Below are positions 8,205-41,468 of a stretch of DNA of 64,000 nucleotides, in pieces. This DNA comes from a virus: positions 109,790 through 173,789 of the IMG/VR virus record IMGVR_UViG_3300028025_000091, one strand, 5' to 3'. The translations under genes and the position numbers were made by a program. How positions within the stretch are numbered: position 1 is the stretch's first letter; each line of letters opens with the position of its first letter. The notes under the pieces are model-generated. The model saw only the letters and a list, made by a program, of their open reading frames with translations, ran no database searches and was not told where the DNA came from.

Positions 8205-8339
8205 ATGGCAAAGAAAAGAACAATTAAAGTATGTACCGGGATTGGATTGAATATGTTTTTTCCCGAATACATTACTATCGAATTAACCGATATAGATACA
8301 GAAATTAAAACACCTAAAAAAACAAAGAAAAATGGGTAG
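8205..8339 (+). CDS. Small hypothetical protein (44 aa, not in ORF track)
   Basis: AAAAGTTATG start context; overlaps the queD start. Confidence 0.45.
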   Translation: MAKKRTIKVCTGIGLNMFFPEYITIELTDIDTEIKTPKKTKKNG

Positions 8340-8817
8340 ATATATTAGCACAAAATTATTTGAAAATTATTCCGTTGCACTTAGACAATGGAGAGCATCT
8401 CACTCACATTGTGAATTGTTACATGGTTATGCTTTGAAATTCAAAGTATGGTTTGCTTCAAACGAACCGCTAGAGGAAAACCAATTAGATGACATGAACT
8501 GGATCGTTGATTACGGTGGGTTCAAAGATGCACCTAAAGGTAATGGTTTGAAATCTTGGATGAATTATATGTGGGATCACACATTGTTGATCGAGAAGGA
8601 CGATCCATACTTAGACTTTTTCGAATCGGCAGCAATGGAAGGTTTATGCGCACTTCGAGTAATGGACAAAATGGGCGCAGAATCATGTGCTAAATTAGTG
8701 TTTGATCATTTTAACGACGTTTTAGCCAAAACAGACGCCGGAAGATGCAAAGTAATTAAAGTAGAATGTTTCGAAAACGACAATAACTCTAGTATTTATG
8801 AAGAAACGGAAGCCTAA
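8332..8817 (+). CDS. queD: 6-carboxytetrahydropterin synthase
   Basis: HC.LLHGY, WIVDYG, WDHTLL, AES.A, CFEN motifs. Confidence 0.9.
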   Translation: MGRYISTKLFENYSVALRQWRASHSHCELLHGYALKFKVWFASNEPLEENQLDDMNWIVDYGGFKDAPKGNGLKSWMNYMWDHTLLIEKDDPYLDFFESAAMEGLCALRVMDKMGAESCAKLVFDHFNDVLAKTDAGRCKVIKVECFENDNNSSIYEETEA

Positions 8818-9025: not shown

Positions 9026-9607
9026 ATGGAACGCACCAAAATTTACTATCTACATTACGGAAATAATGTACCAATTTATGTAGGAAAATCTAATAGAATC
9101 CAAGGTAGAATATCTAATCATAGAAAAAATTTCGGAAAAGATATTATAGCTGAAGTGTTAGATGATGTACCTTTACATGAATGGAAGTTTTGGGAGTGTT
9201 TTTGGATAGAACAATTTAAACAATGGGGGTATGTTCTTTCAAACAAAAACAATGGTGGTGGAGGAGCTACTAAACAAAATTTTTCCCCTATTAGAAGTCA
9301 AAAAATAAGTAAAGCTAGACTAGGTAAACCTATGCCCCATAAAGGAAAAAAATTCACAGAAGAGCATAAAGAGAAAATTAAATCTACTCGAGGTTTTCTC
9401 CAATCCCGCCCAAATACTTGGACAAATCAACCAGTTCTTCAATATAATTTAGATGGAACTTTTATAAGGGAATTTGGTTCCCAATTAGAAGCTTCGTATT
9501 TTTTACAGGTAAAAGGAGATGGAGTTGGAGCCTGTTGTAGAGGTAAACAAAAATCTGCTTATGGTTACATATGGAAATTTAAAAATATAAAACAACAAGA
9601 ACAATGA
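9026..9607 (+). CDS. GIY-YIG homing endonuclease with NUMOD DNA-binding motifs
   Basis: KIYYL...IYVGKS, EEHKEKI (NUMOD3-like), VLQYNLDG...SAYGYIWK (NUMOD1-like); paralogous to 52043-52732. Confidence 0.8.
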   Translation: MERTKIYYLHYGNNVPIYVGKSNRIQGRISNHRKNFGKDIIAEVLDDVPLHEWKFWECFWIEQFKQWGYVLSNKNNGGGGATKQNFSPIRSQKISKARLGKPMPHKGKKFTEEHKEKIKSTRGFLQSRPNTWTNQPVLQYNLDGTFIREFGSQLEASYFLQVKGDGVGACCRGKQKSAYGYIWKFKNIKQQEQ

Positions 9608-9807
9608 AGACAAAATTTTTACAAAGTGTAGAGAGATACACAAACACGAAAGGAAAAACAGGTTACAAAGCTATTTATAGCAATGGAATTGATTTTCAAA
9701 CATTATTCTTCCCAATTAGAAATGGAGTAGATGTTATTAATATTCCTTCAATTATTAACTCAGTTCAAACAATAGATGATTTAGAAGCTATTGGAGCAGA
9801 ACTTTAA
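9604..9807 (+). CDS. Cassette-borne hypothetical protein
   Basis: Starts at the junction ATG; bounded by junctions. Confidence 0.65.
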   Translation: MKTKFLQSVERYTNTKGKTGYKAIYSNGIDFQTLFFPIRNGVDVINIPSIINSVQTIDDLEAIGAEL

Positions 9808-9819
9808 AAAACAAGAACA

Positions 9820-10047
9820 ATGAAAGAGAAACAATTAACAGCAGTAGAACAAGCAGCAGTTGCTTTAAGATTATGGTCAAATGCTTGGAGGGAATTTGAT
9901 AAGACAGGTAAAAATAAACCTGAATCATTTGAAAAAGTAATTGAACCGTTTATTAAAATGGAGAAGGAGTCACTCCAGGAATCCTATGTTAATGGATATG
10001 CAAAAACCAAAAAGATGCTTATACAATTTAAACAACAAGAACAATGA
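9820..10047 (+). CDS. Cassette-borne hypothetical protein, paralog of 63306-63509
   Basis: Ends KQQEQ; 77 bp identical to 63430-63506. Confidence 0.75.
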   Translation: MKEKQLTAVEQAAVALRLWSNAWREFDKTGKNKPESFEKVIEPFIKMEKESLQESYVNGYAKTKKMLIQFKQQEQ

Positions 10048-10292
10048 AAGAAATCCTTTATTTCTCAGCCAGCTGGTGTATGCCTTGTAAACGCTTCAAA
10101 CCAGTTATGGAACAGGTAGGACAAAGTATACCTGTACGATTTGTAAATGTAGATGAAGACCCTCAATTGTCTTCCCAATACAATATCAGAAGCGTACCTA
10201 CATTGGTATTTTTAAAAGACGGACAAGAAGCAGACAAATCAATCGGAGTTTTAACGGAATCACAAGTAAAAGAAAAATGGAATCTACTTTAG
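10044..10292 (+). CDS. Thioredoxin
   Basis: FSASWCMPCK, IRSVPTL. Confidence 0.92.
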   Translation: MKEILYFSASWCMPCKRFKPVMEQVGQSIPVRFVNVDEDPQLSSQYNIRSVPTLVFLKDGQEADKSIGVLTESQVKEKWNLL

Positions 10293-11059
10293 GAAGAATA
10301 GAAGATTATAACAAAACGTTACCTATTATAGAATTGTATCGTTGCGTTCAAAGCGAGGGATCTCGTTTTGGACGCCCAACGATTGCAGTTCGCACAACAG
10401 GTTGTACTCACCGTTGCTACTTTGGTGAAGGGGGTTGGTGTGATTCTTGGTACACAAGCATCCACCCCGAGAAAGGAACATTCAACTTTAACGATATTAT
10501 TCGTATTTATGATGAAAACCCACATATCAAAGAAATGATGCTAACGGGTGGTTCACCTACTATGCATCCTAAATTGGTTAATGAATTAACACATTTTGCA
10601 CATGAAAGAGGTATTCTCATTACTATTGAAACCGAAGGTTCTCATTTCCTCGCTACTGACTATCCTATATCTCTTATTAGTCTCAGTCCTAAGTTTAGCA
10701 ATAGTGTTCCCGTTGTGGGTGTTGCCACGCCGAATGGTTCTATTACGGATGAGAAGATGGTTACCCAACATAACAAACATCGATTAAAATTAGATACAAT
10801 CAAACAAACACTGGAATACCACTCAGATTATCACTATAAACCAGTTTGGGATGGTACAGAAGAAAATCTAAATGAAATTGAAACATTCCGCTTAGCATTA
10901 GATATCCCTAAAGACAAAACCTATATCATGCCCGCTGGCGATACAAGAGAAGAATTAATTAAAATGTATCCACTTGTATTTGATATGTGTGCTGAAAAAG
11001 GATACAACATGACAGGAAGAGATCATATTATTGCATTTGACACTAAAAGAGGAGTATAA
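10277..11059 (+). CDS. queE: 7-carboxy-7-deazaguanine synthase (radical SAM)
   Basis: QSEG...G.P...VR..GC..RC.......CDS, LTGGSP, IETEG, LSPK. Confidence 0.92.
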   Translation: MESTLGRIEDYNKTLPIIELYRCVQSEGSRFGRPTIAVRTTGCTHRCYFGEGGWCDSWYTSIHPEKGTFNFNDIIRIYDENPHIKEMMLTGGSPTMHPKLVNELTHFAHERGILITIETEGSHFLATDYPISLISLSPKFSNSVPVVGVATPNGSITDEKMVTQHNKHRLKLDTIKQTLEYHSDYHYKPVWDGTEENLNEIETFRLALDIPKDKTYIMPAGDTREELIKMYPLVFDMCAEKGYNMTGRDHIIAFDTKRGV

Positions 11060-32905: not shown

Positions 32906-33427
32906 ATGGAAACAAGAAAAAGCAAAGTAACAATTAAGGATGCAGTACATAATGATTATTACTGCCCCATCCCATTAGATGTATTTCCTAATTATATGGG
33001 AATAAATTTAGTAAGTGTTGACTCAGTAGAATGGGTCAAACAAGAAGACGGACAGTTAGTCACATTAACAGTGAACTTTATTCCAAACAATGACGGAACA
33101 ATTGAAGAAATTGCTGAAGAATTTTATTCTGAACAATCAAAAGCTTACGAAGATGCAACAGAACCTATGTTTGATAATTCAAGATATTTAGTTGCAGGTT
33201 TTATTGATGGAGCTAAATGGCAACAAGAACAAGCCAAACAAATGGAGAAAGAGCATCGAGAAACCCATAAGTACACTGAATTTGATATAATTAATGCATT
33301 TGAATATGGGTGGAATCAATATGGGTGGAATAAACAACAATATGGTATAATGGATGAAGATAAGATACATCGAATACAAAAAAGGCTTATACAATCCCTC
33401 AATGAAACTAAACAACAAGAACAATGA
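32906..33427 (+). CDS. Cassette-borne mosaic hypothetical protein
   Basis: Internal QQEQ-AKQMEK junction; ends KQQEQ. Confidence 0.7.
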   Translation: METRKSKVTIKDAVHNDYYCPIPLDVFPNYMGINLVSVDSVEWVKQEDGQLVTLTVNFIPNNDGTIEEIAEEFYSEQSKAYEDATEPMFDNSRYLVAGFIDGAKWQQEQAKQMEKEHRETHKYTEFDIINAFEYGWNQYGWNKQQYGIMDEDKIHRIQKRLIQSLNETKQQEQ

Positions 33428-41004: not shown

Positions 41005-41468
41005 TGCAACACGAAGAAATAATTAATTGCCCTAAATCAGGAGGTGACTTGTGCTATAAAGTACAAGTTGCCCCTGAAATTTACAACTACATGAGTATAT
41101 CTTGTGGATTCTGGACGAATTCATTTATGAAAGAAGGTCATGAATTCTATATGCAACAAATGGAAACATTACCTGAGTTGTATAAAGATTTAGCTTGGAC
41201 TGATCCGGAAACAGGATTGATTTGGTTACCAAATACAATTAATGTAGAGGATAAAGGTATGGTATTTGCCAATGGCACAAACATCTCCAATTGGAAATGG
41301 GCTGCTGTTAGAGCAATTGAAATCCCTAAAAAAGACCAGAAAAAACACCCAATACCAGGTAAACCAGGACAATTCATGAAATATAGAATGGACATGAAGA
41401 ATTTAAAATCGTTTGAAGAGCGTGATTATATGGATGCTCTTTCGTATATTGGAATATTACCTGAATAA
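41004..41468 (+). CDS. Hypothetical protein
   Basis: 154-aa ORF with Cys motifs. Confidence 0.6.
   Translation: MQHEEIINCPKSGGDLCYKVQVAPEIYNYMSISCGFWTNSFMKEGHEFYMQQMETLPELYKDLAWTDPETGLIWLPNTINVEDKGMVFANGTNISNWKWAAVRAIEIPKKDQKKHPIPGKPGQFMKYRMDMKNLKSFEERDYMDALSYIGILPE

Follow-up and report, generated by a model that had tools for sequence, protein, structure and literature searches.

The modular theory of Susskind and Botstein holds that phages exchange modules at 'linker' sequences. In T4-type phages, the hyperplastic regions carry short conserved motifs termed PeSL (promoter-early stem-loop), which recur between their small non-essential ORFs; by homologous recombination between the copies, ORFs are inserted, deleted, replaced or duplicated (Arbiol et al. 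2010, PMC2839356; Comeau et al. 2014, PMC4122927). PeSL-mediated shuffling is the closest described system to the arrays of small genes reported here, which share two recurrent words, a stop/start junction between genes (J1) and an in-frame joint within them (J2); the T4-like genome type, the hyperplastic location and the shuffling outcome are the same. However, a PeSL is an intergenic unit in which a sigma70-like early promoter stands before or after a stem-loop terminator, whereas J1 is a partly coding stop/start junction with no promoter or stem-loop, and J2 lies inside the ORF and splits a gene into two exchangeable halves. The hosts also differ, being here Bacteroidia-type and without Shine-Dalgarno sequences.

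In Flavobacterium johnsoniae, A at positions -3, -6, -12 and -13 is a measured positive determinant of initiation (Baez et al. 2019, PMC6847099). J1, which reads ...AAACAACAAGAACA|ATG, has A at these four positions and no Shine-Dalgarno sequence, as would be expected of a Bacteroidia start; it gives the next gene its ATG, a TGA overlapping that ATG (ATGA) and a TAA in a second frame. The Kozak-like initiation region of Bacteroidia is, however, a loose preference, whereas J1, a putative start, is a 21-nt near-exact word with stops in two frames. Integron cassettes resemble the J1 arrays in being co-oriented, promoter-less small genes between repeated elements, expressed from an upstream promoter, but neither a tyrosine recombinase of the IntI kind nor attC-like inverted repeats were found in the genome or in the J1 and J2 sequences, and exchange here also occurs inside ORFs. 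Ectopic gene conversion and linker exchange share with the gene pair described below an identical tract in diverged flanks, incongruent gene parts and exchange at short shared sequences. In contrast to classical linkers, the present joints consist of rare codons frozen even at their silent sites, and hundreds of contigs that are otherwise unrelated have them in common; in contrast to a classical module, what is exchanged here is half a protein some 70 residues long.

The stretch analysed (the window, 64,000 nt) is the last 64 kb, positions 109790-173789 (G000:C1), of a 173,789-bp IMG/VR virus record that CheckV rates as 100% complete and 'linear'; coordinates are those of the window unless the genome is named. 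The whole genome has a G+C content of 33%. It encodes a major capsid protein of the T4 Gp23 type (208 bits) and a UvsX-like recombinase candidate (genome 85775-86626, E = 1e-20), and its queuosine-pathway genes have their nearest relatives in Cellulophaga and Flavobacterium phages; we therefore regard it as a T4-like myovirus with a Flavobacteriia-type host. A search of the genome for tyrosine and serine recombinases gave no match to PF00589 or PF00239, while control genomes do match. About 25 good copies of J1 occur on the + strand in a few genome clusters, and the joints lie among small accessory ORFs of hyperplastic regions of this T4-like genome, the location described for PeSL-type motifs.

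One such cluster, at 9026-10292, consists of four cassettes chained by J1 between QueD (8332-8817) and QueE (10277-11059): a GIY-YIG/NUMOD homing-endonuclease gene (9026-9607, + strand), which itself ends in J1 (KQQEQ*), a 67-aa gene, copy A of the mini-gene that we call X, and an 82-aa thioredoxin gene. The annotation of Cellulophaga phage phiST places QueD and QueE side by side. QueC, QueD and QueE were looked for in the J1-bearing loci listed and none was found.

Mini-gene X is present as two ORFs on the + strand, at an offset of 53,474 nt. Copy A (9820-10047, 75 aa) joins a type-1 N-half (AAVALRLWSNAWREFDKTGKNKPESFEKVIEPFIK) to the tail SLQESYVNGYAKTKKMLIQFKQQEQ, and copy B (63306-63509, 67 aa) joins a type-2 N-half (AADA..NAWNEFDKTGKNKPVSIEEVIEPFIQ) to the same tail. 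The preliminary description had reported homologous genes at these two loci, with 5' parts clearly diverged and 3' parts 77/77 identical, and all three observations were borne out. Base comparison of 9956-10032 with 63430-63506 gave 77/77 identity at constant offset, with bounding mismatches at 9955 and 10033; this block, the putatively swapped C-half, starts 2 nt 5' of the ATG of Met47. At 10033/63507 copy A has C and copy B has T, which makes a TAA, and copy B stops five codons earlier. Sixteen further identical bases past 10033, running through the shared junction, extend the block to 94 nt with one mismatch. By contrast, of the 118 nt of the 5' part (9838-9955) 22 are mismatched, and 12 nt (4 codons) near the start are missing from copy B. 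In a repeat search the pair appeared as a 177-nt, 93% repeat, the only other copy being a partial third one at 63957-64000.

Both ends of the identical block fall at joints. The last site that discriminates A from B (9955) abuts the right half of J2 in both copies (ATGGAGAAGGAG = MEKE, at 9958-9969 in copy A and as the same 12 nt at 63432-63443 in copy B, both + strand). On the same strand, copy A is preceded by the J1 junction that gives it its ATG (9803-9823) and followed by another (TTTAAACAACAAGAACAATGA, 10027-10047), in which the TGA of X overlaps the ATG of the thioredoxin gene, and copy B is flanked by J1 at 63289-63309 and by a TAAATAAC variant at 63501-63521. An AlphaFold2 model of copy A built on the family alignment confidently predicts a helical hairpin (H8-29 and H37-74, pLDDT 88), and since the J2 motif lies inside helix 2, the swapped tail is modelled as the distal part of that helix. 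Searches with X gave no Pfam match at E < 0.1, no Foldseek match of the model in the PDB at E < 1 and nothing usable in the Atlas; the sole PHROGs match was phrog_2228 (unknown function), to copy B, with E = 0.002.

Copy B belongs to a 651-bp direct-repeat unit (62852-63502, + strand) that holds an 80-aa gene, a 67-aa gene and copy B and is bounded by J1 copies. A second copy of the unit, 498 nt long and 100% identical, runs from 63503, inside the J1 junction 3' of copy B, to the contig end (63503-64000, + strand), so that the last 498 nt of the record repeat 62852-63349 exactly; the third X copy, of which only the first 44 nt are present (63957-64000), lies within it. The start of the unit inside a J1 copy is consistent with unequal crossing-over at J1. 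In four relatives (L085, L049, L087 and L088) a DUF932 gene, an array of 1.4-2.4 kb with differing gene content and a metallophosphoesterase gene follow one another without a break. This record has its metallophosphoesterase gene at the contig start and its DUF932 gene close to the opposite end (62852-64000; genome 1-822), which makes it a circular permutation with its break inside array B.

Ten of the 22 mismatches in the 5' part lie within a single 12-nt patch of copy B, AACCTTTATAAC (63338-63349, + strand), which in the alignment turns the family-invariant ALRLWS into ATFITS. The preliminary description had quoted this very contrast as its example of divergence; it is real in the letters, but it is a private patch of doubtful origin and not ordinary allelic divergence. 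At the position of the patch the consensus reads TTTAAGATTATG, and in copy B the patch is followed by GTCAAATG. The sibling proteins P0002 and P0003 are without the patch and have ALRLWS. Preceded by GATGC, the patch (63333-63349, also 63984-64000) forms a 17-nt exact inverted match to 61323-61339 (- strand), which lies inside a tRNA-like RNA region 2 kb upstream of copy B; by chance no such match is expected. The patch may be a templated micro-replacement (template-switch mutagenesis) or an assembly artefact at the repeat boundary. By inspection, neither a frameshift pair nor a local inversion of the consensus fits.

Could the assembly have made the mosaic itself? An assembly or polishing error in a repeat-rich metagenome contig might have produced the tail identity or the 5' divergence: the contig breaks inside the array, the 498-nt perfect repeat reaches the contig end, the 3' end of the patch is exactly the base where repeat and contig end, and the patch-bearing protein (P0004) occurs on one contig only, while the consensus form P0002 occurs on three. 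We nevertheless consider this very improbable. The copy A protein (P0001) is found letter for letter on four contigs, and P0002 and P0003, which carry the same tail, come from other assemblies, so that tail sharing is independent of this assembly. Furthermore, a 77-nt repeat breaks contigs in k-mer assembly and makes no false identity. An artefact could explain the patch, but not the mosaic, and the case for the mosaic is independent of the patch.

Taken by itself, the A/B pair gives evidence of a mosaic that is suggestive, not decisive. Fisher's test, with 9955/9956 taken as the boundary, gave p = 9e-6 for all sites and, with the breakpoint fixed a priori and the patch left out, p = 0.0014 (12/106 versus 0/77). 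A max-chi-square permutation, which corrects for the choice of breakpoint, gave p = 0.002 for all sites, with the patch as the best breakpoint. Without the patch, this recombination-breakpoint test, which the preliminary description had proposed as its check, did place the best breakpoint at 9955, but with a weak p = 0.09. Synonymous divergence was 0.19 in the 5' part (4/21.3 sites) and nil in the 3' part (0/13.7 sites), a contrast of P ~0.06. It is because of these two marginal values that the pair alone only suggests exchange.

It is the relatives of X that settle the matter. A search of 5.8 billion proteins yielded 29 of them. About 30 family proteins match copy A at 74-98% identity over a block of 43 residues (8-50 in A) that closes with MEKE, but past MEKE their tails are only 5-35% identical to that of A; P0001-P0004, whose tail is the same, and P0006 (48%) are the exceptions. 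Copy A has its nearest N-halves in P0010, P0005 and P0008 (98%, 95% and 95% identity), and these three carry unrelated tails; to the B-type consensus P0002 its N-half is only 84% identical. The B-type N-half, with P0002, P0006 and P0019 as its nearest, is 93% identical to P0006, P0019 and P0020. Since A is so much closer to P0005, P0008 and P0010 than to P0002, the two N-halves are old alleles with a shared tail, and both types are indeed widespread, each being joined in other phages to a variety of tails. Protein-pattern scans of IMG/VR and the JGI metagenomes returned L009 and L010 only, and tblastn for X homologues against GenBank phages gave no match. At the DNA level, the N-halves of L009 and L010 differ at 2/106 positions and their tails at 30/56; for copy A and L009 the counts are 17/106 and 37/62, and for copies A and B, in the same comparison, 12/106 and 0/65. 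Such incongruence between N-half and tail is the signature of recombination at or beside MEKE, and the two copies have what is expected of mosaic paralogues, an identity tract between diverged sequence together with incongruent relationships of the two parts.

These data also bear on a reading without recombination, according to which stronger purifying selection, on the protein or on a nucleotide element, has kept the 3' parts identical. Most of the A/B differences in the 5' part are non-synonymous and the synonymous contrast is marginal, as selection would have it. Against it, the tail is the least conserved part of the family in protein and DNA alike, and constraint on the least constrained part of a protein cannot explain 77/77 identity; conservation of the 3' part across distant phages, which the preliminary description had named as the observation that would speak against exchange, is thus the reverse of what the homologues show. 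No exact 23-mer of the A/B tail occurs elsewhere in IMG/VR, on any other contig, and in the protein search the tail was found only in P0001-P0004. An RNA structure as the cause of the identical block was ruled out, as 9950-10050, which includes J1 and J2 of copy A, folds no better than shuffled sequence (z = 0.06); this fold, and the position of J1 and J2 in or overlapping coding sequence, also set the joints apart from the promoter plus stem-loop of a PeSL. The selection reading is largely refuted, and we hold it to be the least credible of all those considered.

Gene X is a subtype, with its own N-half, of a much larger superfamily with the layout J1 (the stop/start junction plus MKTAVE), variable N-half, J2, variable C-half, J1. 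Typical small ORFs at J1 loci read MKTAVEW... - variable - QAKEMEKEQI - variable - (E)QYYNETFKQQEQ*. J2 is the in-frame joint QAKEMEKEQ, of about 26-30 nt, with the nucleotide consensus GAACAAGCCAAAGAA|ATGGAGAAGGAGCAGAT. A 21-mer of J1, TTAAACAACAAGAACAATGAA, is found exactly in at least 118 IMG/VR contigs, and a 26-mer of J2, CAAGCCAAAGAAATGGAGAARGAGCA, in at least 120. Across hundreds of viral contigs both words are nearly invariant in nucleotides, and the halves between them reassort almost independently. Among 46 members from the J1 matches listed, N-half and C-half identity are uncorrelated (r = 0.11), and for the 130 distinct members at 226 loci among the matches listed r is 0.15. At an identity of at least 70%, pairs of these 130 members share the N-half only in 21 cases, the tail only in 16 and both in 1.

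When member pairs were aligned on the ATG of MEK, the similarity of same-tail pairs ended right 5' of CAAGCCAAAGAA and that of same-N-half pairs right 3' of ATGGAGAAGGAGCAGAT, so that in every displayed pair (nine same-tail, six same-N-half) homology breaks off at one or the other edge of J2. X-type tails also occur on non-X N-halves, as in the pairs P0005/L022 (89% identity in the tail, 22% in the N-half), P0019/L106 (81% and 24%), P0018/L080 (65% and 22%) and P0013/L098 (58% and 29%). However, of J2 the X-type genes retain just the right half, and its 12-17 nt are a short length on which to recombine homologously with non-X members. In the subset of members fetched only via J1, the J2 codons are GCC in 38/42, GAG in 40/46 and 33/35, AAG in 32/41 and CAG in 24/35, and the genome uses GCC, GAG, AAG and CAG at 8%, 13%, 10% and 8%. 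J2 is frozen at silent sites, in codons that are rare for this phage.

Two features of the joints are recorded here as side observations. The consensus sequences of J1 (AACAACAAGAACAATG) and J2 (GAACAAGCCAAAGAAATG) both consist of AACAAG, then an A-rich run, then ATG, and J2 might be a putative internal translation start that yields the C-half alone. In the window, 32906-33427 is a 173-aa ORF with an internal J1 remnant fused to J2 (...QQEQAKQMEKEH...), and the L031 gene (-925), which is far shorter, has the same tail; this layout suggests that two genes were fused at the joints.

We consider it probable that the A/B mosaic results from a recent half-gene exchange by homologous recombination at J2 and J1. 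Copies A and B are cassettes of one two-helix mini-gene in two hyperplastic arrays, and half of the gene would recently have been exchanged as a crossover or gene-conversion tract, with the left end in J2 (ATGGAGAAGGAG, directly past 9955) and the right end in J1. The enzyme would likely be the phage's own UvsX-type system, acting on short frozen homologies, and the partners could be paralogues within one genome or co-infecting relatives; since the A/B tail is private to this lineage, an intragenomic event seems favoured. As J1 combines what resembles a strong Bacteroidia-type start with the ATGA overlap, any cassette landing there is predicted to be expressed. The 651-bp direct repeat between J1 copies would be a second product of the same process, via unequal crossing-over.

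Ordinary homologous recombination is preferred here because the genome is without tyrosine or serine recombinase, the joints, examined for palindromes, are not palindromic, and the phage is T4-like with a UvsX-type enzyme. An enzyme-directed exchange, by an integron-like site-specific system at J1 and J2 or through homing-endonuclease breaks repaired from the paralogue, appears to us quite improbable, and its integron-like form was ruled out by the lack of a recombinase in the genome. In keeping with an endonuclease, the GIY-YIG/NUMOD gene precedes copy A by two genes, and 300 nt downstream of the L009 homologue there is an HNH-like gene; joints frozen at silent sites in rare codons also resemble a recognition site. 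GIY-YIG relatives, however, are present in only 4 of the ~118 J1-bearing loci listed, and repair set off by an endonuclease would likewise proceed through homologous recombination at these joints.

Whole cassettes are on the move as well. The 82-aa cassette g82 at the contig start (genome 104-352) is 96% identical to L112:4773-5018 (- strand), where the neighbourhood differs, with RecT-like and exonuclease-like genes, which indicates a recent transfer of the cassette between unlike phages. Cassette g67a is 94% identical in L056, again with different neighbours, and there the next gene is the 58-aa gene that follows X in L009. By these matches whole cassettes clearly move at J1. The outcome expected of PeSL-type recombination is found here, with breakpoints at the joints, halves reassorted and the 651-bp repeat starting inside J1.

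The same movement underlies another reading of the A/B pair, in which a whole cassette was duplicated between the arrays and the N-half of one copy was then replaced from a co-infecting relative at J2, so that the 3' half never moved alone. The wide distribution of both N-half types with many tails in other phages, the movement of g82 and g67a at J1 and the restriction of the tail to this lineage all agree with it. It needs two events instead of one, and it is a variant of the same mechanism that uses the same joints; we regard it as possible but rather unlikely. The preliminary description had proposed that the 3' half-gene was recently exchanged between the clusters, with MEK and the terminal junction as endpoints. 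The mosaic stands, and both endpoints turn out to be family-wide joints, but duplication followed by N-half replacement fits equally well as regards the 3' half as the moving part and the direct route from cluster to cluster.

Under recombination at J2 and J1, the reading that we prefer, nature provides a clean example of phage modular evolution working below the level of the whole gene: what changes places is one half of a protein some 70 residues long, at an in-frame joint of 26-30 nt. This joint is frozen down to its silent sites, and hundreds of uncultured phages have it. Should the joints be kept for their role in recombination, they would testify that phage accessory genomes are selected for evolvability and would offer an experimental system for measuring how short homologies steer gene shuffling. 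We also put forward, as a speculation that we think unlikely, that J1 and J2 are the selected or enzyme-targeted joints of a natural combinatorial system in Bacteroidia phages, in which a shared pool of two-helix halves is continually reassembled within genomes and between co-infecting phages into proteins of new specificity, directed for instance against host defence or takeover targets. Were this so, the freezing at silent sites would betray selection for recombinability, or else a dedicated nuclease or recombinase at work. Such arrays also break assemblies, here at the contig ends, and inflate apparent counts of orphan genes.

Two further repeated elements were seen in the window. The exact word TTCGTATATT occurs upstream of genes in its 41-62-kb part, on the + strand at 41441, 53248, 56009, 58198, 58458, 58732, 59615, 60372, 61461 and 62436, often with TTTGG about 20 nt further upstream, and is probably a class of phage promoter; the copy at 62436 directly precedes the first J1 of array B, and the element is separate from J1 and J2. 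At the other end of the window, 2-1345 is occupied by direct repeats of one family, 62-75% identical and recurring at ~153 and ~312 nt, which presumably encode a repeated protein domain.
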